A stretch of 64,000 bases of DNA from an uncultured Ruminococcus sp. (GTDB taxonomy: Bacteria; Bacillota; Clostridia; Oscillospirales; Ruminococcaceae). A program made the translations under genes and the position numbers. The stretch covers positions 1,276 to 65,275 of the forward strand of contig NZ_CAMKRR010000009.1 in the NCBI RefSeq assembly GCF_946415235.1, given 5' to 3'. The notes below the pieces were generated by a model. The model did no database searches. It was given only the letters and a program-made list of their open reading frames with translations, and had not been told where the DNA came from. Positions 49,723 through 64,000 of the stretch are shown in pieces; the first letter of the stretch is position 1, and each line of letters begins with the position of its first letter.

Positions 49723-51810
49723 TCACACTCCGAAAAGAAGTTTGTCGTATGCAGGGAATGGATAATAGTCCTCCGCAGTTATTGTCTCGGCTTTGTCGGC
49801 TGCTGCACGGAGCTTATCCATTGCAGGGATCATCTTGTCACGTACAAACTCTGATTCCTTGATTATATCTCCGATGGTTTTCAGCTTTGCAACAGCTGCT
49901 TCAAGCTTTACAGCTGCATCGTCCATTTCATCAATGCGGACTGACAGCTCCTCAACGAGCTTGGTCTCGTACTTGCAGGCTGCCTTTGATACGCTCTTCT
50001 TGACTGCAACAGCAGAAGCCGTATCAGCAGCAAACTTTGCTACAGCAGGGATTATCTCCTTGCGAGCCATATCGACCATGGTCTGTGCCTCGATATTTAC
50101 AGACTTGACATAGTTTTCAAGCATGATATCGCGGCGTGAATAGATCTCTGCCTCCGTAAAGATACCGTGTGATGTGAGCATTTCAATATTCTTTTTGTCA
50201 CATATCTTAGGCATACAGTCGGCAGTAGTCCTCAGGTTGGAAAGTCCGCGCTTTTCGGCTTCCTTGACCCACTTGTCATCATAGCCGTTTCCGTTGAAGA
50301 TTATGCGCTTGTGTTCCTTGATGGTATTCTTTATGAGTTCGTGGAGAGCCTTGTTGAAGTCCTTTGCTCCTTCGAGCTTGTCAGCGAACTGCTTTAATAC
50401 CTCCGCAACTGCACCGTTCAGATGGATATTGGCGCATGATATGCTGTTGGACGATCCAAGCATACGGAACTCAAACTTATTGCCTGTGAATGCAAAAGGA
50501 GATGTACGGTTACGGTCTGTTGTGTCCTTGCTGAACTGAGGAAGCACATCAACACCCAGTTTCATTTTCTCCTTGGCTGTACCGCCGTAGGGCTTGTCAT
50601 TCTCGATAGCCTCAAGTATAGCTGTAAGCTCATCACCAAGGAATATTGAAATAATAGCGGGAGGAGCTTCGTTTGCACCGAGACGGTGGTCATTGCCTGC
50701 TGTAGCAACTGAAAGTCTCAGTAGATCCTGATAGTCGTCAACTGCCTTGATAACAGCAGCAAGGAAGAGCAGGAACTGTGCATTCTCATAAGGTGTTTCT
50801 CCGGGAGAAAGAAGATTTACGCCCGTATCTGTGGAGATGGACCAGTTGTTGTGCTTGCCCGAGCCATTTACGCCCTCGAATGGCTTTTCGTGAAGCAGGC
50901 AAACAAGCCCGTGACGCTCGGCTACCTTCTTCATAACCTCCATTGTGAGCTGATTGTGGTCGGCAGCAATATTTGTAGTTTTGTAAATAGGAGCAAGCTC
51001 GTGCTGTGCGGGAGCGACTTCATTGTGCTTTGTCTTTGCAAGGATACCGAGCTTCCAGAGCTCCTTGTCAAGATCAGCCATAAATTCGGATACTCTCGAC
51101 TTTATGGAACCGAAATAGTGATCTTCCATTTCCTGTCCCTTCGGAGGCATTGCACCGAAAAGGGTACGTCCTGTCATTATGAGGTCTTTCCTCTTCTTGT
51201 ACATGTCACGGTCAACGAGGAAGTATTCCTGCTCGGGACCTACCGATGTGCGGACGCTTCTGACGCTTTCGTTTCCGAACAGCTTAAGAACACGAAGTGC
51301 CTGCTTGTTGAGTGCTTCCATTGAGCGGAGAAGCGGAACCTTCTTGTCGAGAGCCTCACCTGTATATGAGCAGAAAGCGGTAGGTATGTAAAGTGTTCCG
51401 TCCTTGATGAATGCATATGAAGTCGGATCCCATGCAGTATATCCACGTGCTTCAAAGGTAGCGCGGAGTCCGCCCGAAGGGAATGACGAAGCATCAGGCT
51501 CGCCCTTTACAAGCTCCTTGCCCGAGAATTCCATGATAACTCTTCCGTCGGGTGCAGGAGTGATAAAGCTGTCGTGCTTCTCGGCTGTAACGCCTGTCAT
51601 TGGCTGGAACCAGTGAGTATAGTGAGTTGCACCTTTCTCGATAGCCCAGTCCTTCATGGCTGCCGCAACAACATTTGCAACGGACAGATCAAGGGGCGTT
51701 CCCCTGTCAATCGTCCTTTTCAGAGACTTGTAGACCTTCTCTGAGAGGGTTGCTTTCATGACTCTCTCATCGAATACCATTGAACCAAAATAATCTGTTA
51801 CCTTTTCCAT
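49723..51810 (-). CDS. glnA: Glutamine synthetase type III (catalytic motifs intact)
   Basis: Start MEKVT at 51810. [74 protein letters not shown]. Confidence 0.96.
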
Positions 51811-51825
51811 TTTTATTTCCTCCAT

Positions 51826-53427
<1,602 letters not shown>

Positions 53428-53454
53428 TTATGCTCCTTGAAATACATTTATGAT

Positions 53455-53511
53455 AAAGGCAGTCTGCGGAGTATGGGAGATTCAGGTTTAATAATATCCG
53501 CAGACGCCCTT
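53455..53511 (-). other. Long hairpin in the pyrG 5' leader
   Basis: aaaggc-agtctgcgga ... tccgcagac-gccctt with a ~26-nt loop, just upstream of the pyrG RBS. Confidence 0.6.
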
Positions 53512-53610
53512 AACAGCTTATGAACGTTCATGCTCCTTCGAATTGCGGAACGATGTAAGTATCATGCATGGCTTGATAAAAAACAAATGGGTGCAGAAGT
53601 CCTGAGACTT

Positions 53611-53689
53611 CATACACCCCTTTGTGTATGGAATTAGCGCTTAAACCAAAAAAGAGAGCTACGGATACCATATCCGCAGCTCCCTTGCT
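53611..53689 (-). promoter_or_regulatory. pyrG-operon attenuator: ANTAR-type hairpin / terminator / second ANTAR-type hairpin
   Basis: Minus strand AGC-AAGGGA-GCU (53689-53678) overlaps the 5' arm of a 14-bp terminator (53684-53654) with U-tract; then CAUACAC-AAAGGG-GUGUAUG (53630-53611). Confidence 0.75.
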
Positions 53690-53701
53690 GTTTACAATGC
53701 C

Positions 53702-53730
53702 ATTATAGACCTTTGTGGGAGATTTGTCAA
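53702..53730 (-). promoter_or_regulatory. Consensus SigA promoter of the pyrG-glnA-dapF-dapL operon
   Basis: Minus strand TTGACA-17-TATAAT. Confidence 0.88.
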
Positions 53731-53831
53731 TAGCTTTTCTGAAATTTGACGTATCGCATATTTTTATTTAATAGTTAGCATATAATAACTGTATAAATTT
53801 CACGAAAGCGCCGAAATAACCAATTTTCCTA

Positions 53832-53860
53832 TTGACATTTCCACTTTAACGTGATAAGAT
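53832..53860 (+). promoter_or_regulatory. SigA promoter of the gltB operon
   Basis: TTGACA-17-TAAGAT with TG. Confidence 0.82.
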
Positions 53861-53869
53861 ATTTTTAGC

Positions 53870-53948
53870 AACAAAGACGTTCGTACAGGCTTACTGTCTG
53901 TATGGACGTCTTTTTTATTATGCGATGCGGATCAATGGCGCTCCGTAT
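53870..53948 (+). promoter_or_regulatory. gltB-operon attenuator: ANTAR-type hairpin / terminator / second ANTAR-type hairpin
   Basis: AAC-AAAGAC-GUU (53870-53881) overlaps the 5' arm of a 14-bp terminator (53875-53911) with U6; then AUGCGGAUC-AAUGGC-GCUCCGUAU (53925-53948) next to the RBS. Confidence 0.78.
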
Positions 53949-53959
53949 CGGAAAGGCAA

Positions 53960-56900
53960 GTGAATGATATGGATAATTTCAGGAGGGAAGCTCCATATGT
54001 GCAGCAGGGCCTTTACGACCCGAGATTTGAACATGATAACTGCGGAATAGGTGCAGTTGTAAACATCAAGGGCGAGGCATCAAGATATGTCGTTGACAGT
54101 GCTCTTACTATAGTTGAAAAGCTTGAGCACCGTGCAGGCAAGGATGCTGAGGGCAAAACCGGTGACGGCGTGGGAATACTTGTGCAGATGCCCTACAGCT
54201 TTTTTACAGAAGAGATAAAAAAACTGGGTGCCGAACTCGGTGAAAACGGTGACTTCGGTGTAGGTATGTTTTTCTTCCCGCAGAATGAACTCAGACGCGA
54301 CCGTGCAAAGAAGCTTTTTGAAAAAATAACCGACAATAACGGCATGGACTTTATATGCTGGAGAGAAGTGCCTACTTCTCCTTCAATACTCGGTCATAAA
54401 GCGCTCAGCAGTATGCCGTGTATCATGCAGGCTTTTCTAAGGCGTCCAGAAAACTGCAAAAGAGGTCTCGATTTTGACCGCAGGCTCTTCATTGCAAGAC
54501 GTGAGTTCGAGCAGTCAAACGAGGATACTTATGTATGTTCCCTTTCAAGCCGTACTATAGTTTATAAGGGTATGTTCCTCGTTGACGAGCTGAGAAGGTT
54601 CTATGCCGATCTCCGCAGTGAGGACTTCACATCTGCTATAGCAATGGTGCACTCGCGTTTCTCGACGAATACTAATCCAAGCTGGCAGAAGGCTCACCCG
54701 AACCGCTTTATCGTTCACAACGGTGAGATCAATACGATTACAGGCAATGCAGACAAAATGCTCGCCCGTGAGGAGACAATGACCTGTGAAACGCTGAAAA
54801 ACGATATGCACAGGATACTTCCTGCTATAAATGTAAACGGTTCCGACTCCGCGAGACTTGACAATGCTCTCGAATTTATGGTAATGTCGGGTATGCCGCT
54901 TCCTCTTGCGGTTATGATAACTATACCCGAGCCGTGGAAAAATGACAAGACCATATCCAAGGCAAAGTATGACTTCTACCAGTACTATGCTACAATGATG
55001 GAGCCATGGGACGGTCCTGCTTCCATTCTTTTCTCCGACGGTGACGTTATGGGAGCCGTTCTCGACAGGAACGGCCTCCGTCCTTCAAGATACTGCATAA
55101 CAAGCGACGGGTTTCTTATTCTTTCATCAGAGACGGGCTGCATAGATATCGCACCTGAGAATATTGTGAAAAAAGACCGTCTCCGTCCGGGAAAAATGCT
55201 CCTTGCAGACACAAAGCAGGGACGTATCATAGAGGACGACGAGATCAAGAATACTTATGCATCACGTCAGCCATACGGCGAATGGCTCGATGCAAACCTT
55301 GTACGTCTCCATGATCTGCATATCCCGAACAAGGGAGTTCAGACCTACTCCAAAGACGAGCTTGCGAAGCTCCACAAGGCTTTCGGCTACTCCTACGAGG
55401 ATATCCGCACATCTATTCTGCCAATGGCTGAAAAAGGAGCTGAGCCCATTGCTTCCATGGGAAGCGATATACCGCTCCCTCCGCTTGATAAGCAGTCTCC
55501 TCCCCTTTTCAACTACTTCCGTCAGCTATTCGCACAGGTAACAAATCCGCCCTTTGACGCTATCCGTGAAGAGATAGTTACCGACACCAGCGTATACATA
55601 GGCAAGGACGGAAATATCCTCGAAGAATGTCCCGAAAACTGCCATGTACTCAAGATCGAAAACCCAATCCTTACAGAGACGGATATGCTCAAGATAAAAG
55701 CCCTTGACCGTAAAGGGCTGAAAAGCGCAGTTATCCCGATAACCTACTACATCGGAACATCTCTTGACAAGGCTATCGAGCGTCTTTTCATCGAAGCTGA
55801 CAAGGCTTACCGCGACGGTGCATCCATTCTTATCCTTTCGGACCGCGGTGTTGACGAGTACCACTGCCCGATACCATCACTCCTTGCAGTTTCAGCACTC
55901 CAGCAGCATCTCGTTTCCACAAAGAAGCGCACGGCAGTTGCCATGATCCTTGAATCGGCTGAGCCAAGAGAGGTACACCATTTTGCTGCACTTCTCGGCT
56001 ATGGTGCGTGTGCTGTAAATCCGTACCTTGCACACGAAACTATCCGTTCACTTATCGAAGAAGGTTCTCTCGACAAGGATTTCTATGCTGCCGAGGACGA
56101 CTACAACAGTGCTATACTCCACGGTATAGTAAAAATAGCTTCAAAAATGGGAATCTCCACTATACAGTCCTATCAGGGCAGCAAGCTTTTTGAGGCAGTT
56201 GGTATCTCACAGGAGCTTATCGACAGCTGCTTTGCAGGTACTGTAAGCCGTATAGGCGGTATCGGACTTGCTGATATAAGCCGCCGCACAGAGGCTCTCC
56301 ACACAGCTGCTTATGATCCGCTGGGACTCCATGTGAGCAGCGAAGTAAAGAGCGCAGGCAGTCACAAGCTCCGCAGCGGAAAGAGCGATCACCTTTACAC
56401 TCCCGAGACCATACATCTGCTTCAGCAGGCAGCGTGGACAGGCAGCTATGAGACATTTAAGAAGTATTCCGAAGCTCTTACCCGTGAGGATAACGAGCTT
56501 ACGCTCCGCAGTCTCCTTGACTTCAATTTTGACAGTGCAAATGAGATACCGCTGGACGAGGTCGAGTCTGTTGAGAGCATTTGCACACGCTTCAAGACAG
56601 GCGCCATGTCATACGGCTCTATTTCGCAGGAAGCTCATGAGTGCATGGCTGTTGCCATGAACAGTATAGGCGGAAAATCCAACAGCGGCGAGGGCGGTGA
56701 AAGTCCCGAGCGTCTGAGATCTGATAAATGTTCCGCTATCAAGCAGGTTGCTTCGGGACGTTTCGGCGTTACCTCGGAATATCTGGTTTCAGCACAGGAG
56801 ATACAGATAAAAATGGCACAGGGTGCAAAGCCCGGTGAGGGCGGACATCTTCCCTCGGGAAAGGTCTATCCCTGGATTGCCAAAACTCGTCATTCAACAG

Positions 56901-58504
56901 CAGGCGTTGGTCTTATTTCTCCTCCGCCCCACCATGATATCTACTCTATCGAAGATCTTGCACAGCTTATCTACGATCTCAAAAATGCCAACGACAAGGC
57001 TCGTATCTCAGTAAAACTCGTATCCGAGGCAGGCGTAGGAACTGTTGCGGCAGGCGTTGCAAAGGCAGGAGCACAGGTCATCCTTATTTCGGGCTACGAC
57101 GGAGGTACGGGAGCGGCTCCAAAGAGCTCCATATACAATGCAGGACTTCCGTGGGAGCTTGGACTTGCCGAGGCTCATCAGACACTTATGCTCAACGGTC
57201 TGCGTTCAAGAGTACGTATTGAAACAGACGGCAAGCTCATGACAGGTCGTGATGTACTTGTTGCAGCTCTTCTCGGTGCCGAGGAATTCGGCTTTGCAAC
57301 AGCTCCGCTGGTAACAATGGGCTGTGTTATGATGAGGGTCTGCAACCTCGACACCTGCCCTATGGGTATAGCAACACAGAATCCCGAGCTCAGGAAGCGT
57401 TTCCGCGGAAAGCCTGAATATATCATAAACTTCATGCACTTCATAGCACAGGAGCTCCGTGAATATATGGCTAAGCTCGGAATACGCACAGTTGACGAGC
57501 TTGTGGGACGCACAGATTTTCTCCGCATAAAGGACAGTGCGGCTGAAAAGAATATCGACTTTACCAATATACTTGCAAACAGCACAGTTGACAGCAAAAA
57601 ACATTTTGTCGCTGACGATATTTACGATTTTGAACTTGACAAGACCATAGACCGCCGTGTTATAATAAAGAAGCTGGGAAGTGCGCTGAAAAACGGAACT
57701 TCCAAGTCGATTTCCATTAACGTTGTGAATACAGACCGCTCCGTAGGAACTCTCACAGGTGCGGAGATAACACGGATCCACGGTGAAAACGTACTTGCTG
57801 ACGATACATTTACAGTGATATGCACTGGCAGCGGCGGACAGTCCTTCGGCGCTTTCATACCTAAAGGACTTACACTGGAGCTTTGCGGTGACAGCAACGA
57901 TTACTTCGGAAAGGGACTGTCGGGCGGCAAGCTGATACTCTGTCCGCCTAAGGGTTCAGCATTCAAAGCTGACGAGAATATCATCGTCGGAAATGTGGCT
58001 CTCTACGGAGCTACCTCGGGCAAGGCATTCATCAACGGCGTTGCAGGCGAACGCTTCTGCGTAAGGAATTCGGGAGCTACTGCAGTCTGCGAGGGCGTGG
58101 GTGACCACGGCTGCGAGTACATGACAGGCGGACGTGCCGTTATTCTCGGACGAACAGGAAAGAACTTTGCAGCAGGTATGTCGGGCGGTATAGCATATGT
58201 CCTCGACGAGGAGCATGATCTCTATACACGTCTCAACAAAGCTTTGGTTTCCCTTGAAACCGTCATCGATGAAGAAGACATCGCAGAGCTTAAGGCCATG
58301 ATCTCCGAACACGCAGAGGCTACAGGTTCTGAAAAGGCAAAGCAGATACTTGCTGATTTCGAGCGCTATCTGCCATGCTTCAAGAAGGTTATACCCCACG
58401 ATTTTGCGAAGATACAAACCACAGTAACAAAACTTGAAAAATCAGGCGTGAGCAGCGAACAGGCTATGATAGAAGCATTCGAGCTCATCAGAAAGGAGGC
58501 GTGA
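53960..58504 (+). CDS. gltB: Glutamate synthase large subunit (start GTG 53960 or ATG 53969)
   Basis: EHDNCGIG, HSRFSTNT.PSW, EPWDGPA, GAMSYGSIS, QGAKPGEGGHLP, CVMMRVCNLDTCP.GIATQ, GXGXG C-terminus. Confidence 0.98.
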   Translation: MNDMDNFRREAPYVQQGLYDPRFEHDNCGIGAVVNIKGEASRYVVDSALTIVEKLEHRAGKDAEGKTGDGVGILVQMPYSFFTEEIKKLGAELGENGDFGVGMFFFPQNELRRDRAKKLFEKITDNNGMDFICWREVPTSPSILGHKALSSMPCIMQAFLRRPENCKRGLDFDRRLFIARREFEQSNEDTYVCSLSSRTIVYKGMFLVDELRRFYADLRSEDFTSAIAMVHSRFSTNTNPSWQKAHPNRFIVHNGEINTITGNADKMLAREETMTCETLKNDMHRILPAINVNGSDSARLDNALEFMVMSGMPLPLAVMITIPEPWKNDKTISKAKYDFYQYYATMMEPWDGPASILFSDGDVMGAVLDRNGLRPSRYCITSDGFLILSSETGCIDIAPENIVKKDRLRPGKMLLADTKQGRIIEDDEIKNTYASRQPYGEWLDANLVRLHDLHIPNKGVQTYSKDELAKLHKAFGYSYEDIRTSILPMAEKGAEPIASMGSDIPLPPLDKQSPPLFNYFRQLFAQVTNPPFDAIREEIVTDTSVYIGKDGNILEECPENCHVLKIENPILTETDMLKIKALDRKGLKSAVIPITYYIGTSLDKAIERLFIEADKAYRDGASILILSDRGVDEYHCPIPSLLAVSALQQHLVSTKKRTAVAMILESAEPREVHHFAALLGYGACAVNPYLAHETIRSLIEEGSLDKDFYAAEDDYNSAILHGIVKIASKMGISTIQSYQGSKLFEAVGISQELIDSCFAGTVSRIGGIGLADISRRTEALHTAAYDPLGLHVSSEVKSAGSHKLRSGKSDHLYTPETIHLLQQAAWTGSYETFKKYSEALTREDNELTLRSLLDFNFDSANEIPLDEVESVESICTRFKTGAMSYGSISQEAHECMAVAMNSIGGKSNSGEGGESPERLRSDKCSAIKQVASGRFGVTSEYLVSAQEIQIKMAQGAKPGEGGHLPSGKVYPWIAKTRHSTAGVGLISPPPHHDIYSIEDLAQLIYDLKNANDKARISVKLVSEAGVGTVAAGVAKAGAQVILISGYDGGTGAAPKSSIYNAGLPWELGLAEAHQTLMLNGLRSRVRIETDGKLMTGRDVLVAALLGAEEFGFATAPLVTMGCVMMRVCNLDTCPMGIATQNPELRKRFRGKPEYIINFMHFIAQELREYMAKLGIRTVDELVGRTDFLRIKDSAAEKNIDFTNILANSTVDSKKHFVADDIYDFELDKTIDRRVIIKKLGSALKNGTSKSISINVVNTDRSVGTLTGAEITRIHGENVLADDTFTVICTGSGGQSFGAFIPKGLTLELCGDSNDYFGKGLSGGKLILCPPKGSAFKADENIIVGNVALYGATSGKAFINGVAGERFCVRNSGATAVCEGVGDHGCEYMTGGRAVILGRTGKNFAAGMSGGIAYVLDEEHDLYTRLNKALVSLETVIDEEDIAELKAMISEHAEATGSEKAKQILADFERYLPCFKKVIPHDFAKIQTTVTKLEKSGVSSEQAMIEAFELIRKEA

Positions 58505-58507
58505 GCC

Positions 58508-59992
58508 ATGGGAAAAGCTACAGGATTTCTTGAATATTCAAGAACGGAAACAACTGCAAAGGAGCCTCTTGAGCGCATAAAGAACTTTAATGAGTTCCAT
58601 ATTCCGCTCAGTGAAGAGCACCGCCGCGAACAGGCTTCACGCTGCATGGACTGCGGAGTCCCCTTCTGTCAGAACGGTAAAATGCTCTGCGGCATGATAT
58701 CAGGCTGCCCGCTGAACAACCTCATTCCCGAATGGAACGATCTGCTTTATCACGGTCAGAAAGAATTGGCGCTGAACCGTCTGCTCATGACCAACAACTT
58801 CCCCGAGTTCACATCAAGGGTATGTCCAGCACTCTGTGAAAAGGCTTGTATCTGCGGTGTTAACGATTCACCCGTAACTACAAAGGAGAACGAGAATTCA
58901 ATCATCGAATTCGGCTTCGCAAAGGGTCTTATGCAGCCGCAGATACCCGCTGTAAGGAGCGGCAAGTATGTCGCAGTCATAGGCTCTGGTCCCTCGGGAC
59001 TTGCTGCTGCTGATACTCTCAATAAGCGCGGTCACAGTGTAACTGTATTTGAGCGCTCCGACCGTGTCGGTGGTCTGCTTATGTACGGTATCCCTAATAT
59101 GAAGCTTGAAAAGCATATCATAGAGCGCCGAGTTGAGCTCATGAAAGCTGAGGGCGTTGAATTCAGAACGAATTCAAATGTGGGCGAAAATGTTTCCGCC
59201 GATGAAATACTCGGCAGCTTTGATGCTGTCGTACTTGCCTGCGGTTCGTCAAATCCCCGTGATATAAAAGCTGAAGGACGTGACGCAGAGGGCATATACT
59301 TCGCAGTGGATTTCCTCAAAGCAACTACAAAGAGCCTGCTTGACTCAGAGCTTACAGACGGCAAGTTTATTTCCGCCAAGGACAAGAACGTTGTTATCAT
59401 AGGAGGAGGCGATACAGGTAATGACTGTGTCGGAACTTCCGTCCGTCATGGCTGCAAGTCAGTTGTTCAGCTTGAAATGATGCCTAAGCTCCCCGACGAG
59501 AGAGCCGAGAACAACCCATTCCCCGAGTGGCCGAGAGTCTGCAAGACCGATTACGGTCAGGAAGAAGCAATAGCGCTATTCGGACATGATCCGCGAATCT
59601 ACTGCACAACAGTCAAGGAATTCATCAAGGACGAAAGCGGCAAGCTTTCTGCTATAAAGGCAGTAAAGCTAAGCTACGGCACAGATCCCGAAACTGGCAG
59701 ACGCACTATGAACGAGATCGAAGGAAGCGAAGAGATCATCCCCTGCGAGCTTTGTCTCATTGCAGCAGGATTTCTCGGCTGTCAGCAGTATATCGCAGAC
59801 GCTTTCGGCGTATCACTTGACCAGCGCACAAACGTAAAAACAGCACCCGGCAAACATTCCACAGATGTTGATAAGGTATTCACAGCAGGCGATATGCACA
59901 TAGGACAGTCCCTTGTGGTCCGTGCTATCCGTGAGGGACGCGACGCCGCGGCAGAGGTCGATGAATACCTTATGGGATACACCAATTTATGA
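58508..59992 (+). CDS. gltD: Glutamate synthase small subunit
   Basis: QASRCMDCGVPFC, NNFPEFT.RVCPA.CE..C, GSGPSGL, GGGDTGNDC, VF.AGD...GQSLVV.AI.EGR. Confidence 0.97.
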   Translation: MGKATGFLEYSRTETTAKEPLERIKNFNEFHIPLSEEHRREQASRCMDCGVPFCQNGKMLCGMISGCPLNNLIPEWNDLLYHGQKELALNRLLMTNNFPEFTSRVCPALCEKACICGVNDSPVTTKENENSIIEFGFAKGLMQPQIPAVRSGKYVAVIGSGPSGLAAADTLNKRGHSVTVFERSDRVGGLLMYGIPNMKLEKHIIERRVELMKAEGVEFRTNSNVGENVSADEILGSFDAVVLACGSSNPRDIKAEGRDAEGIYFAVDFLKATTKSLLDSELTDGKFISAKDKNVVIIGGGDTGNDCVGTSVRHGCKSVVQLEMMPKLPDERAENNPFPEWPRVCKTDYGQEEAIALFGHDPRIYCTTVKEFIKDESGKLSAIKAVKLSYGTDPETGRRTMNEIEGSEEIIPCELCLIAAGFLGCQQYIADAFGVSLDQRTNVKTAPGKHSTDVDKVFTAGDMHIGQSLVVRAIREGRDAAAEVDEYLMGYTNL

Positions 59993-60005
59993 TACGGAGG
60001 CTAAA

Positions 60006-61280
60006 ATGATCTATTCAGAAAATGAGATATTGCAGTATATTGAGGAAAATGACGTTAAGTTCGTAAAGCTTACATTCTGCGACTTGAAAGGCAGACTAAA
60101 AAACATATCTGTCCTTTCATCAGAGCTTGCAATGACCTTTGAGCGCGGAGTCCGCATAACCGCTAAGAAAATAGCAGGCTTCGAGGCAGCAAACGGAAAA
60201 GATCTTTTCCTCTTCCCCGACGCTCAGACAATGACTGTTCTCCCGTGGAGACCTCAGCAGGGCAGAGTAATCAGAATGTTCTGCTATATCCGTTACGCTG
60301 ACGGCACTCCGTTCGAGGGAGACGGCAGATACTTCCTCAAAAAGGCAATGAAAGCGGCAGTTGCGGCAGGCTACTGCTTCCGCTTCGGAACATCATGCGA
60401 ATTCACGCTTTTCCATAAGGACGCAAACGGGCTCCCGACAAAAACTCCCCATGATTATGCGGGCTACTGCGATGTTGCTCCCGACGACAAGGGTGAGAAT
60501 ATACGCCGCGATGTTTGCCTCACTCTCGAACAGATGGGTATACATCCCATATCATCTCGCCATGAGAGCGGCTGCGGACAGCATGAGATAGACTTCAATG
60601 CCTCATCTGCATTAAAAGCGGCTGATACGTTCCTCAGTTTCAAATCCGCTGTAAAATCTGTAGCGGAGACACACGATGTCCACGCAAGCTTCATGCCAAA
60701 GCCTCTTCGCAGCGACTGCGGCAACGGTATGCATATCAGCTTCAATGTCTTCCCCGACAATGATATGCTAGAGGAAACAAAAAACAATAATGAACTTCTT
60801 AAAAGTGCAGCAGCAGGTATAATGAAGCATATCCGTGAATTTACTCTTTTCACGAATTCGACTGTGAATTCTTACGAAAGGCTCGGTGAATTCACTGCTC
60901 CCCGTGACGTAATCTGGTCAGACGAGGAAGGAGCTCAGCTTATACGCATTAATCCTGAAAGCGAAAACACCTGTGTTGAATTACGTGCCGCCGATTGTGT
61001 GTGCGATCCGTATTTCGTTCTCGGTCTGATGATATATTCGGCACTTGAGGGCATCGAAGGAAAGCTTGCACTGCCCGAAAAGAACAGCGGCACGGAACGT
61101 CTTCCCTCAAACCTTGAGGAAGCGGCCTCCTGCACGGAAAGTTCTGATTTTGTTAAGAAATACGTGCCGTCAAATATACTTGATGTGCTGATATATTACA
61201 GTCATGAAGAGTGGCGCGTGTATTCTTCGGCATATGACAAGGATGCATTTGAGGAAAAACACTATTTTTACAGTCTCTGA
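60006..61280 (+). CDS. Glutamine synthetase type I-like protein with degenerate active site (probable pseudo-enzyme)
   Basis: ATG 60006 after ggagg. GS-I scaffold (VKFVKL.F.DL.G.LKN, FPD..T..VLPW, GQHEI, FMPKP, GMH, ELR) with GPExEF changed to GTSCEF, GYEAP to EFTAP and NR to EG. Confidence 0.82.
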   Translation: MIYSENEILQYIEENDVKFVKLTFCDLKGRLKNISVLSSELAMTFERGVRITAKKIAGFEAANGKDLFLFPDAQTMTVLPWRPQQGRVIRMFCYIRYADGTPFEGDGRYFLKKAMKAAVAAGYCFRFGTSCEFTLFHKDANGLPTKTPHDYAGYCDVAPDDKGENIRRDVCLTLEQMGIHPISSRHESGCGQHEIDFNASSALKAADTFLSFKSAVKSVAETHDVHASFMPKPLRSDCGNGMHISFNVFPDNDMLEETKNNNELLKSAAAGIMKHIREFTLFTNSTVNSYERLGEFTAPRDVIWSDEEGAQLIRINPESENTCVELRAADCVCDPYFVLGLMIYSALEGIEGKLALPEKNSGTERLPSNLEEAASCTESSDFVKKYVPSNILDVLIYYSHEEWRVYSSAYDKDAFEEKHYFYSL

Positions 61281-61292
61281 CGGAGGTAAGCT

Positions 61293-61874
61293 TTGGAAAA
61301 AATTCTTGTAGTTTCAAGTAATAAGACCGCCTCTGAAGCTCTTGTGAATTTCCTCCGTGATTCATTCAGATGTACGCCCAAACTCGTCGAATCAGCCTAT
61401 CAGGCAAAGACAGTTTTCGACGCCGACCCGTCTGTGGAGCTCGCAGTTATCAACTCTCCGCTTATGGACGAATCGGGCTTTGAGCTTGCGGAATACATCA
61501 TCGAAAATACCACTGCAAACTGCATTTTCATGATAAAAGAGGAGCAGACAGAAAAAATTGCAGGACGAGCCGAAAAGACAGGTATTATCATAGTCGGCAA
61601 GCCGTTCAGCCGTACTCTCCTTTACCAGCTTGTGAAAACTCTTGATATCGCCGTAAACCGTTCACTGAAGCTTTACGAGGAGAACCGTCGTCTTGAAGAA
61701 AAGATCGACGAGATACAGACGATTGACAAGGCAAAGTTCATGCTCATGCAGTACAAGGGTATGACAGAGGATGAAGCACACGCTTATCTTGAACAGTACG
61801 CTATGAATAAACGCAAGAAGAAAAGTCTTGCGGCTCTGGCAATAATCGATAAGCTGAGTGAGCAATACTTATAA
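61293..61874 (+). CDS. ANTAR-domain RNA-binding antiterminator with pseudo-receiver domain
   Basis: TTG after ggaggt. Receiver fold lacks the acidic pocket (VVSSN) and has Asn54 at the phospho-Asp position; KPF retained; coiled coil; IDKAKFMLM...GMTEDEAHAYLEQYAMNKR. Confidence 0.92.
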   Translation: MEKILVVSSNKTASEALVNFLRDSFRCTPKLVESAYQAKTVFDADPSVELAVINSPLMDESGFELAEYIIENTTANCIFMIKEEQTEKIAGRAEKTGIIIVGKPFSRTLLYQLVKTLDIAVNRSLKLYEENRRLEEKIDEIQTIDKAKFMLMQYKGMTEDEAHAYLEQYAMNKRKKKSLAALAIIDKLSEQYL

Positions 61875-61888
61875 GTGAGGCGTAGGAA

Positions 61889-63310
61889 ATGTTTGACAGT
61901 ATCCACGAAGAATGCGGTGTTTTCGGAATATACGAAAACAAAACTTCTGACGTTGCCGCATCTGTATATTTCGGGCTGTATGCGCTCCAGCACAGAGGTC
62001 AGGAGAGCTGCGGCATAACTGTCTGTGATGACGGTATCTTCAGGCATAAGCGTGCAGACGGACTTGTCTCCGAGGTGTTCGGCAGAGAAGAGCTCGACAA
62101 GCTCGGCAACGGAAACATGGCTGTAGGACACGTCCGTTACTCCACAACAGGCGGACATAATCACAATAATATCCAGCCCCTTGTAATACGCCATATCAAG
62201 GGCAATATGGCGCTCGTTCATAACGGCAATCTTGTCAATGCGGCAGAACTCCGCCGTTCCTTTGAGATGTCGGGAGCTATCTTTCACGGCACCTCGGACA
62301 CAGAGGCGATAGCTTATTCCATAGTGCGTGAACGACTTACAACAGGTTCGACCGAACAGGCTGTTGAACGTGCAATGCCCAGCATCAAGGGAGCATACTC
62401 ATGCATACTCATGACTGCTACAAAGCTGATAGCCTTTCGTGACCCGGACGGCTTCCGTCCGCTGTGTATCGGCAGAACTCATGACGGAGCTTATGTTGTT
62501 GCTTCCGAGTCCTGCGCTCTTGAAACAGTGGGTGCGGAGTTCCTGCGTGATATTGACGCGGGAGAAATTGTCGTCATAGGCAGGGACGGATTGCAGTCCA
62601 TACGCACAAACTGCACAACAAGGCGCAATATCTGCATTTTCGAGTACATCTACTTTGCTCGTCCCGATTCTGTTATCGAGGGCATATCAGTTCACCACGC
62701 GAGACTTTCTGCAGGTAGGCTCCTTGCAAAAAGCAGTCCTGTTGATGCAGATATAGTTATCGGCGTTCCCGATTCGGGACTTGATGCGGCTCTCGGTTAT
62801 GCCAACGAAAGCGGTATACCATACGGTATCGGCTTCATCAAGAACAAATACATCGGCCGCAGCTTCATTCAGCCCGAACAGCACCAGCGCGAAAACGCAG
62901 TAAAGATAAAGCTTAACGCCGTCCGTGAGAGCGTTTCGGGCAAGCGCGTTATAATGATTGATGATTCCATAGTCCGCGGCACTACAAGCGCAAGGATAGT
63001 AAAGCTGCTGCGCGAAGCAGGAGCAAAGGAAGTTCATGTCCGCATCTCTTCACCACCTTTTCTTCACACCTGCCACTTCGGCACGGATATCGACTCGGAG
63101 GAGAATCTCATTGCCGGCAAATGCAGCTCAACAGATGAGATAGCAAAGTATATCGGCGCTGACAGTCTTGCATACCTGCCTGTTGAATGTCTCGGTGAGC
63201 TCGTTGACAACCGTTTCGGCTACTGCAAGGGCTGCTTCACAGGAGCTTATCCCGTAGACATTTCAGGTGCAGGGAGCAAAAATAAGTTCGACGAGAAAAT
63301 ACACAAATAA
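61889..63310 (+). CDS. purF: Amidophosphoribosyltransferase
   Basis: HEECGVFG, LQHRGQE, GHVRYST, HNGNL, VPDSG, IDDSIVRGTT, GTDI. Confidence 0.97.
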   Translation: MFDSIHEECGVFGIYENKTSDVAASVYFGLYALQHRGQESCGITVCDDGIFRHKRADGLVSEVFGREELDKLGNGNMAVGHVRYSTTGGHNHNNIQPLVIRHIKGNMALVHNGNLVNAAELRRSFEMSGAIFHGTSDTEAIAYSIVRERLTTGSTEQAVERAMPSIKGAYSCILMTATKLIAFRDPDGFRPLCIGRTHDGAYVVASESCALETVGAEFLRDIDAGEIVVIGRDGLQSIRTNCTTRRNICIFEYIYFARPDSVIEGISVHHARLSAGRLLAKSSPVDADIVIGVPDSGLDAALGYANESGIPYGIGFIKNKYIGRSFIQPEQHQRENAVKIKLNAVRESVSGKRVIMIDDSIVRGTTSARIVKLLREAGAKEVHVRISSPPFLHTCHFGTDIDSEENLIAGKCSSTDEIAKYIGADSLAYLPVECLGELVDNRFGYCKGCFTGAYPVDISGAGSKNKFDEKIHK

Positions 63311-63340
63311 ACTGCGGAACAGAAACGCTTCAAAATAAGC

Positions 63341-63366
63341 CTTGTACATCAATGGCGATGTACAAG
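63341..63366 (+). promoter_or_regulatory. ANTAR-type hairpin upstream of asnB
   Basis: Perfect 10-bp stem CUUGUACAUC-AAUGGC-GAUGUACAAG. Confidence 0.7.
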
Positions 63367-63408
63367 TGATATCAAGTAAAATATACCTATTATTCGGAGG
63401 GATTTACT

Positions 63409-64000
63409 ATGTGTACGATAATGGCATACTGCGGTGTAGGCGGTATGGAAAAGGTCACGGAGGGACTTAAAGCAACAGTCTCACGCGGACCTGACGATCA
63501 GAGAATAACTGAAGTTGCAGGAGGAGTACTCGGATTTCAGAGACTGTCCATAATGGGACTTACTCCCGAGGGGATGCAGCCATTTGAACTTGATGGCAGC
63601 TCTGTTATATGCAACGGCGAGATATATGGTTTCAGAAAGCTGCGCGATGAACTCATCAAAAAGGGCTACAGCTTTAAAAGTGACAGTGACTGCGAGATAC
63701 TTCTTCCGCTTTATAAGGAATACGGTACTGATATGTTCGCAAAGCTTGACGCTGAGTTTGCCTGCGTGATATACGACGGCGCAGCGAAAGAATTCATTGC
63801 AGCCCGTGACCCCATAGGCATTCGTCCGCTGTACTACGGCAAGTCCTATGACGGCACGATCGTCTTTGCAAGTGAAGCAAAGAACCTTGTCAGGATTTGC
63901 AGAAAGGTAATGCCTTTCCCGCCAGGTCACTACTTCAAGGGCGGAGAATTTCACTGCTACTGCGACATCACAGCTGTTGACAAGGTCATTCACGATGATA
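63409..64000 (+). CDS. asnB: Asparagine synthase (glutamine-hydrolysing), 3' truncated; absent from the supplied ORF track
   Basis: ggaggg RBS, then MCTIMAY...RGPD...GFQRLSIMGL...QPF...CNGEIY...SDCE.LLPLY...LDAEFA...ARDPIGIRPLYYG...FASEAK.L...FPPGHY. Confidence 0.95.
   Translation, partial: MCTIMAYCGVGGMEKVTEGLKATVSRGPDDQRITEVAGGVLGFQRLSIMGLTPEGMQPFELDGSSVICNGEIYGFRKLRDELIKKGYSFKSDSDCEILLPLYKEYGTDMFAKLDAEFACVIYDGAAKEFIAARDPIGIRPLYYGKSYDGTIVFASEAKNLVRICRKVMPFPPGHYFKGGEFHCYCDITAVDKVIHDD

Follow-up and report, generated by a model that had tools for sequence, protein, structure and literature searches.

We describe here the control region of the gltB operon in a 64,000-nucleotide stretch of contig NZ_CAMKRR010000009.1 from an uncultured Ruminococcus sp. 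(the window), in which the glutamate synthase genes are preceded by a leader RNA carrying two hairpins with hexanucleotide loops of the type read by ANTAR-domain regulators. The operon occupies the plus strand and runs from gltB and gltD through a gene for a glutamine-synthetase-like protein and an ANTAR gene to purF and asnB (Table 1), while the minus strand carries pyrG (51826-53421), a type III glutamine synthetase gene and dapF. Two strong promoters, both pointing outward, lie in the 540-bp region between the divergent pyrG and gltB genes. The first leader hairpin, P1, belongs to an attenuator of known kind; the new part is the second hairpin, P2, together with the class of stand-alone hairpins of which it is a member. 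Our reading of the leader, to which we assign an even chance, is that P1 decides termination and that P2 is a second ANTAR site that would act later, on translation initiation or on the fate of the mRNA.

Table 1. Features of the gltB locus and related hairpins elsewhere in the genome (positions are those of the window unless a contig is named; G000, this genome)
Feature	Position	Strand	Details
pyrG leader module 1	53652..53690	-	CAGC-AAGGGA-GCUG (53690-53677) overlaps terminator 1 (53686-53652, then U-run)
pyrG leader module 2	53578..53630	-	CAUACAC-AAAGGG-GUGUAUG (53630-53611) overlaps terminator 53625-53583; U-run 53582-53578
gltB operon promoter, sigma-70 type	53832..53860	+	-35 TTGACA 53832-53837; -10 TAAGAT 53855-53860
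P1, weak 3-bp hexaloop hairpin	53870..53881	+	AAC-AAAGAC-GUU; A1, G4, C-G closure
Intrinsic terminator	53873..53916	+	stem 53873-53913; loop GCUUA (5 nt); U6 53911-53916
P2, stable stand-alone ANTAR-type hexaloop hairpin	53923..53950	+	CGAUGCGGAUC-AAUGGC-GCUCCGUAUCG; 3' of terminator, ends at Shine-Dalgarno
Shine-Dalgarno and gltB start	53950..53971	+	GGAAAGG 53950-53956; ATG 53969-53971; nearly invariant in genus
gltB, glutamate synthase large subunit	53969..58504	+	NF008730, 1685.7 bits
gltD, glutamate synthase small subunit	58508..59992	+	TIGR01317, 678 bits
Glutamine-synthetase-like protein, presumed sensor partner	59913..61280	+	Gln-synt_C and Gln-synt_N; below GlnA cut-off
ANTAR-domain protein, receiver-like N-terminus, presumed reader of P1 and P2	61293..61874	+	PF03861, E = 7.8e-15
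purF, amidophosphoribosyltransferase	61889..63310	+	TIGR01134
purF-asnB intercistronic hairpin	63341..63366	+	CUUGUACAUC-AAUGGC-GAUGUACAAG; 42 nt before asnB ATG; apex as in gltB P2
asnB, glutamine-hydrolysing asparagine synthase, 5' part	63409..63999	+	NF006949, TIGR01536; extends past window
asnA (aspartate-ammonia ligase) hairpin	G000 contig 22, 4653-4682 (L120)		31 nt before asnA
ddh (diaminopimelate dehydrogenase) hairpin	G000 contig 79, 4530-4553 (L150)		mRNA 5' end, about +1 to +3
gdhA hairpin	G000 contig 31, 28476-28503 (L090)		start codon within AAUGGC loop; 11-bp A/U-rich stem

The gltB leader and its two hairpins

The gltB promoter matches the consensus at 10 of 12 positions, with a 17-nt spacer and a TG before the -10 element, and its -35 element and a TGnTAA(G/T)AT -10 element are conserved among the gltB leaders of the genus. 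Transcription is predicted to start near 53867, which places the 5' end of the transcript about 3 nt upstream of P1. The 5' arm of the terminator begins with the loop and 3' arm of P1 (9 nt, 53873-53881), so that the two structures are mutually exclusive, and P1 is the predicted antiterminator of the leader. Folded alone, the terminator reaches -26.3 kcal/mol, and it fits the definition of an intrinsic (Rho-independent) terminator, a G+C-containing stem-loop followed by a U-run. Its stem has 18 pairs, 7 of them G-C, a count that includes G-U pairs and the A-U pairs reaching into the U-run. An earlier note on this DNA had placed P1 about 3 nt after the predicted start and overlapping a terminator with U6, and P2 at the ribosome site, just where we find them, and had rightly recognised ANTAR-type signals; its figure of 14 bp for the terminator was an undercount. 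Both hairpins conform to the definition of an ANTAR target (hexaloops with A1 and G4, C-G closure and stems of at least 3 bp).

An AU-rich linker of 6 nt (UUUUUUAUUAUG) separates the U-run from P2, which begins about 41 nt after the end of P1. P2 has 10 pairs, with one U.C mismatch below the closing C-G pair. In folding calculations P1 on its own is unstable (+1.3 kcal/mol) and P2 is stable (-12.4 kcal/mol), so that P1 would require protein in order to exist whereas P2 would fold unaided. The leader region folds much better than shuffled sequence (z = -5.5). Alignment of orthologues, with its invariant GAAAGGCAAGUGAAUGAUAUG block, sets the gltB start at ATG 53969 and not at GTG 53960, the start given in the list of open reading frames (ORFs).

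To follow these elements among relatives we collected gltB loci across the family (121 genomes) and the genus (61 genomes). Of the 28 genus leaders 26 carry P2, at GltB identities down to 75%, and it is absent or replaced in the remaining two (L002 and L055); throughout the genus it stays directly against the Shine-Dalgarno sequence. An ungapped, loop-anchored alignment of 22 distinct genus sequences has double changes at 10 of the 11 pairs, with 84.7% of cells paired, and its covariation score of 0.60 compares with 0.18 in shuffles, of which none of 500 reached 0.60, and with at most 0.15 when the register is slid. Positions C11, A12, A13, G15 and G18 are invariant, giving the apex C-AA.G..-G. 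Given 24 leaders in a plain MAFFT alignment, RNAalifold returned both the terminator and P2. Hairpins with the consensus loop and at least nine pairs are expected in this genome at about 2e-4 per 60-nt window, and chance is excluded for P2 because of this low rate together with the covariation. Loss of conservation of the second hairpin, which the earlier note had named as telling against its claim, was looked for and is not what we see. The loop of P2 is fixed while its stems change freely, which argues for sequence-specific recognition. A genome scan for the pattern hairpin, T-run, hairpin returned mostly noise and missed gltB itself owing to the mismatch in P2.

Other ways of reading the leader were considered and rejected. 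A second terminator hidden behind P2 would have to be built from an imperfect complement, in codons 8-11, to the P2 loop and 3' arm; it has no U-run, and no plus-strand terminator was found between 54000 and 64000. A canonical partner hairpin upstream of P1 would find no room, since the transcript begins some 3 nt ahead of P1, both in this genome and in relatives. A leader peptide of 15 codons (MRCGSMALRIGKASE, 53920-53967) could be drawn across P2, with 1 nt between its stop codon and the gltB AUG; the close relatives L030, L031 and L035 lack its start codon, and the ORF is probably non-functional. In the minimum free energy (MFE) fold the Shine-Dalgarno region is sequestered by pairing of AAAGGC with GCCUUU of codons 17-18; relatives have GACUUU, and the pairing is not conserved. 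The terminator apex does not qualify as a further ANTAR hairpin, the loops found there (GCUUA and ACUAU) violating A1 and G4. Rfam covariance models, applied with cmscan to positions 50000-64000 at E values up to 10, gave four chance-level matches, none of them on the leader elements.

Single-hairpin attenuators at gltB and elsewhere

A P1-type hairpin whose loop and 3' arm open the terminator is present in all 28 genus gltB leaders with enough upstream sequence. Among 26 gltB leaders from other genera of the family P2 was not found, and 17 of these have P1 and the terminator without it. Wherever promoters were read, the P1-type hairpin starts no more than about 10 nt from the predicted transcript start. 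The stems of P1 vary yet pair (GAAC/GUUC, GGC/GUC, AGC/GCU and GAC/GUC), being 3 bp long in this genome and 3-7 bp long in relatives, and the apex C-AA.G..-G is invariant, A1, A2 and G4 being the same in all 34 P1 sequences. At the family level P1 covariation is 0.34 against 0.19 in shuffles, a figure that carries an ascertainment bias, the set having been chosen for at least three pairs so that the inner pairs hold by construction. The terminator shows compensatory changes in the RNAalifold consensus structure of 24 genus leaders.

Leaders of this kind are also found elsewhere in the genome, where P1 plus terminator precedes two amt genes, pyrG-glnN, nadE (a glutamine-dependent NAD synthase) and genes for citrate synthase, a class-I amidotransferase-like hydrolase, a GNAT acetyltransferase and a membrane protein; in at least five further leaders P1 and a terminator occur without P2. 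Control of citrate synthase would tie the supply of 2-oxoglutarate to the nitrogen regulon. Four single-hairpin attenuators stand within 5 kb on G000 contig 118 (1486-6100), before the genes for NAD synthase, the GNAT protein, the membrane protein and citrate synthase. We read P1 with its terminator as a single-hairpin transcription attenuator of the ANTAR type, a recurring variant rather than a new one. That a single hairpin would be enough for the termination decision, one of the possibilities raised in the earlier note, is strongly backed, because many leaders lack P2 and because the U-run is reached before P2 is made; with P2 made only afterwards, the decision would rest on P1 alone.

The earlier note had also described the gltB leader as a repeat of the hairpin-terminator-hairpin layout of pyrG, and here the two leaders part company. 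The pyrG leader is a row of tandem attenuators, in which the second hairpin is the antiterminator of its own second terminator, whereas P2 has no terminator. The pyrG-glnN leader (minus strand, 53454-53700) comprises three hexaloop modules, AAGGGA, AAAGGG and AAGGGC, of which the first two have clear U-runs. Its second terminator, ACAAAGGGGUGUAUGAAGUC-UCAG-GACUUCUGCACCCAUUUGU followed by five U, takes its 5' arm from the second hairpin in the MFE fold. The third module has a terminator-like stem at about 53512-53454, and its antiterminator hairpin is degenerate here and intact in L031 and L038. The tandem design is seen in the pyrG leaders of relatives, with weaker second U-runs. Near-copies of this pyrG-type tandem leader also accompany two amt paralogues of about 600 amino acids with an apparent C-terminal extension (G000 contig 92 near 7008 and contig 100 near 8151); the copies include the CAUACAC-AAAGGG-GUGUAUG hairpin in identical form, and their second stems are without a good U-run.

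Stand-alone hairpins and the role of P2

The sequence CAAUGGCG occurs 92 times in this genome of 3.4 Mb and only five times on a stem of at least 8 pairs, against a mean of 0.25 in 20 shuffled genomes. These five hairpins belong to gltB, asnB, asnA, ddh and gdhA (the genes were confirmed by NCBIfam), all of them lie 0-42 nt before, or over, start codons, and the enzymes concerned all place ammonia or amide nitrogen into amino acids. Stand-alone hairpins have stems of 8-13 bp and loops that are almost always AAUGGC, compared with stems of 3-7 bp and varied loops in the terminator-linked hairpins; the antiterminator of citrate synthase, with its loop AAUGGC, shows that the two classes share some loop sequences.

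Covariation in the purF-asnB hairpin reaches 0.665 against 0.277, with double changes in 8 of 10 pairs, and the hairpin is conserved at 18 of the 30 asnB loci of the genus. Three relatives (L068, L076 and L080) have a separate promoter for asnB, followed by P1 and a terminator and then by a P2-type hairpin, so that the gltB layout either arose or was retained at a second gene. Most genus loci of asnA and ddh likewise keep their hairpin, and both hairpins show compensatory changes. At gdhA, the only class member to cover a start codon, the stem also includes the final two G of the Shine-Dalgarno sequence together with codons 2-5, and 29 of 30 genus genomes share all 28 nt of the element unchanged, synonymous sites included, while the flanks drift. 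The gdhA hairpin is a candidate site at which an ANTAR protein would control translation directly, and its geometry favours action on translation. A possible weaker member of the class, UCCGC-AAUGAU-GCGGA, lies 30 nt before the purC ribosome site (G000 contig 11, 26005-26020, minus strand).

These hairpins suggest, tentatively and with somewhat less than even confidence on our part, that single, constitutively folded ANTAR hexaloop hairpins form a distinct post-transcriptional arm of a clostridial nitrogen regulon at glutamate synthase (GOGAT), AsnB, AsnA, glutamate dehydrogenase (GDH) and Ddh, and that at gltB (and at asnB in relatives) such a hairpin stands in series behind a single-hairpin attenuator, one protein gating transcription and then the translation or stability of the same mRNA. 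If this is true, the class would represent the stand-alone hexaloop targets predicted by Walshe et al. (2022).

We envision a scenario for gltB in which both elements present one signal, the hexaloop C-AA(A/U/G)G(G/A)N-G. By default the 18-bp terminator would form and transcription would end at U6. When active, the NitR-type ANTAR protein of the operon, its activity presumably set by the glutamine-synthetase-like partner, would clamp the unstable 3-bp P1 and withhold 9 nt at the base of the terminator stem, allowing read-through into gltBD, the glutamine-synthetase-like gene, the ANTAR gene, purF and asnB. P2, made only after this decision, would have no part in it. On the full-length mRNA it would place against the Shine-Dalgarno sequence another binding site of the same kind, always folded and of high quality, likely to be bound by the same ANTAR protein, and would there set translation initiation or the fate of the mRNA as a second, serial control step. 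We infer the binding of an ANTAR protein to P1 and to P2, as well as the function of P2 and the direction of its effect, from conserved sequence and predicted structure; a post-termination role for P2 is plausible.

Several observations weigh against this scenario. P2 is missing from 2 of the 28 genus leaders and from all other genera sampled, and must therefore be dispensable for basic control. The distance from hairpin to start codon is 18 nt at gltB, 19-25 nt at ddh, 28-41 nt at asnA and about 31-42 nt at asnB, too variable for the whole class to work simply by blocking the ribosome site sterically. The geometry at gdhA suggests translational repression by a protein-bound hairpin, which at P2 would oppose the activation brought about by the same protein at P1. 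Finally, EutV depends on a pair of hairpins spaced by 5-12 nt (PMC3369931), and antitermination through a single hairpin is therefore itself a putative mechanism.

The variable distances would suit a role that does not depend on position, such as that of a decoy. As an always-folded, high-affinity hairpin on each full-length mRNA, P2 would soak up free ANTAR protein, damp self-induction and sharpen the induction threshold, with no direct effect on gltB translation needed. The stability of P2 and its best-consensus loop AAUGGC, set beside an unstable P1 with the loop AAAGAC or AAGGAC, fit such a role, as does the presence of the ANTAR gene on the same transcript, and there is a precedent in the small RNA (sRNA) EutX/Rli55, which sequesters EutV (PMC8934654). 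A titration site could, however, sit anywhere in an mRNA, whereas all five class members lie just upstream of or on start codons, the gdhA copy holds the start codon itself and the place of the gltB copy at the Shine-Dalgarno sequence is kept across the genus. We regard the decoy as a close alternative, though an unlikely one.

It is also conceivable, though decidedly unlikely in our judgement, that P2 is a structure that works independently of any ANTAR protein: a 5' stabiliser left after cleavage in the linker UUUUUUAUUAUG, an insulator that keeps the Shine-Dalgarno sequence off the U-rich 3' arm of the terminator, or the target of a non-ANTAR factor. P2 is stable and stands directly before the ribosome site, the ribosome-site AAAGG could pair with CCUUU/UCUUU of the terminator 3' arm, and the ddh copy, at about +1 to +3 of its mRNA, resembles a classical 5' stabiliser. 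A purely structural hairpin needs no invariant loop and closing pair, yet it is C-AA.G..-G that is fixed while the stems change freely; moreover, the loop of P2 matches the antiterminator hairpins of the same regulon, and all five strict copies stand at nitrogen-assimilation genes.

The copies at asnB, asnA, ddh and gdhA have no terminator upstream in this genome, an observation that tells against the possibility that P2 instead aids antitermination. The dimer lock proposed in the earlier note would have P2 capture the second subunit of a P1-held dimer and so lock out the terminator; alternatively, P2 might keep ANTAR dimers on tethered nascent transcripts, near the promoter, and so raise the local concentration encountered by the next polymerase. 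ANTAR proteins do act as dimers, EutV moves between two hairpins (PMC8934654), and in the P2-bearing genus the P1 loops depart from the optimal AAWGGC. P2, however, lies 7 nt beyond the U-run and would be nonexistent at the termination decision, and P1-plus-terminator leaders without it are the majority both in the family and in this genome. In addition, EutV function is lost when its linker is made 20 nt longer (PMC8934654), and some 41 nt separate the two hairpins here. We consider a part for P2 in antitermination the least probable of the alternatives.

Which protein would read the two classes of hairpin is a related question. The earlier note had put an ANTAR gene in the gltB operon, and the PF03861 match (Table 1) and the lack of any plus-strand terminator between gltB and asnB bear this out. 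Intergenic gaps are tight, and purF and asnB are assigned to the operon because no plus-strand terminator was found in 54000-64000. The start at 59913 of the glutamine-synthetase-like gene is the value of the ORF list, and its true start is probably further downstream. The operon ANTAR protein aligns to EutV, Rv1626, AmiR and NasR; it retains the Met of the AMNKR motif and has a His, as does AmiR, at the position of the guanine-stacking Tyr164 of EutV. A second glutamine-synthetase-like gene, followed directly by a second ANTAR gene (189 amino acids), lies on G000 contig 4 at about 105530-107200 (L089), and the two ANTAR proteins are 36% identical.

With two such pairs in this genome and two ANTAR genes in most genomes of the genus, it could be that the operon protein reads the terminator-linked hairpins and the contig 4 pair the stand-alone AAUGGC hairpins, so that transcription and translation would follow different nitrogen signals. 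The difference between the classes in stem length and preferred loop would be accounted for, and activation at P1 would no longer clash with possible repression at P2. On the other side, G131 (99% complete) has one ANTAR gene and keeps the gltB, asnB and asnA hairpins, G022 has two ANTAR genes and is without the gltB and asnB hairpins, and the AAUGGC loop of the citrate synthase antiterminator crosses the proposed divide. A division of labour between two regulators is thus improbable, a possibility we do not favour, and its strict form, in which P2-class hairpins are read only by the second paralogue, is weakened by G131 and G022. We retain the reading in which one ANTAR protein would act at P1 and then at P2.

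Comparison with known ANTAR systems

The amiE leader of Pseudomonas aeruginosa is controlled by AmiR, a pseudo-receiver ANTAR protein that is itself controlled by a partner protein and not by phosphorylation. The partner, AmiC, is an amide sensor resembling periplasmic binding proteins, and the genes for both lie downstream of the terminator that they control, which results in self-regulation. The gltB operon is similar in having a presumably partner-controlled ANTAR protein, with the genes for both behind the terminator, and the ANTAR protein matches the AmiR structure 1qo0 and shares its His at the position of EutV Tyr164; it differs in that the partner is a homologue of glutamine synthetase. 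The positive feedback proposed in the earlier note is too simple a description of this circuit, the glutamine-synthetase-like partner gene being co-induced with the ANTAR gene in a manner comparable to the co-induction of amiC with amiR. To our knowledge, a stand-alone hairpin at the ribosome site has not been described for AmiR/AmiC.

The glnA-nitR-gltAB cluster of Clostridium saccharobutylicum joins the ANTAR regulator NitR with glutamine synthetase and glutamate synthase genes, and the gltB operon likewise couples an ANTAR regulator to genes for a glutamine-synthetase-type protein and for glutamate synthase. We know of no definition of the RNA targets of the NitR cluster, nor of any report of a second hairpin at a ribosome site there, and a literature search for NitR RNA targets or for single ANTAR hairpins at ribosome sites in Firmicutes found nothing.

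The stand-alone hairpins have parallels of two kinds. Actinobacterial ANTAR RNAs repress translation and, like P2, are hairpins without a terminator at or near the ribosome site (PMC8164766; bioRxiv 10.1101/660928). They are, however, dual hairpins over the start region whose reader is a phosphorylated response regulator, and no attenuator accompanies them, whereas the hairpins described here are single and lie 0-42 nt upstream; P2 ends at the first G of the Shine-Dalgarno sequence and leaves the core and the AUG uncovered. EutX/Rli55 resembles P2 in being an ANTAR-binding hairpin (putatively so for P2) that is not an antiterminator and could sequester its regulator (PMC8934654), and differs from it in being a separate, riboswitch-controlled sRNA, P2 being part of the regulated mRNA.

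The closest comparison for the attenuator is with the eut leaders of Enterococcus faecalis and their regulator EutV/EutW, with which the gltB leader shares A1/G4 hexaloops, conserved closing pairs, mutual exclusion of hairpin and terminator and an ANTAR gene among the targets (PMC3369931, PMC8934654). Of the features that define the canonical dual-hexaloop element (Ramesh et al. 2012), we find loops with A1 and G4, stems of at least 3 bp with closing pairs, exclusion of the terminator and an ANTAR gene; two close hairpins before the 3' arm of the terminator are absent here and in 26 genus leaders. The eut leaders have two hairpins before the terminator, the 3' one overlapping it, whereas gltB has a single overlapping hairpin at the 5' end of the transcript and a second one about 41 nt away, past the U-run and at the ribosome site. 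Unlike EutV/EutW, the ANTAR regulator of the gltB operon has no kinase partner and a glutamine-synthetase-like neighbour instead.

ANTAR regulators are widespread and how they recognise RNA is debated: genetics pointed to two close hairpins, while the EutV-RNA structure indicated that a single hexaloop is the minimal binding unit and led to the prediction of stand-alone sites (PMC8934654). The gltB locus offers natural test cases for both views, a one-hairpin attenuator conserved in the family and a covarying stand-alone hairpin placed to act only after transcription. If our reading is true, one protein would control both the termination and the translation (or stability) of the same message, and the nitrogen regulon of major rumen fibre-degrading bacteria would be defined. 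In practice, searches for ANTAR targets should drop the requirement for a second hairpin or a terminator.

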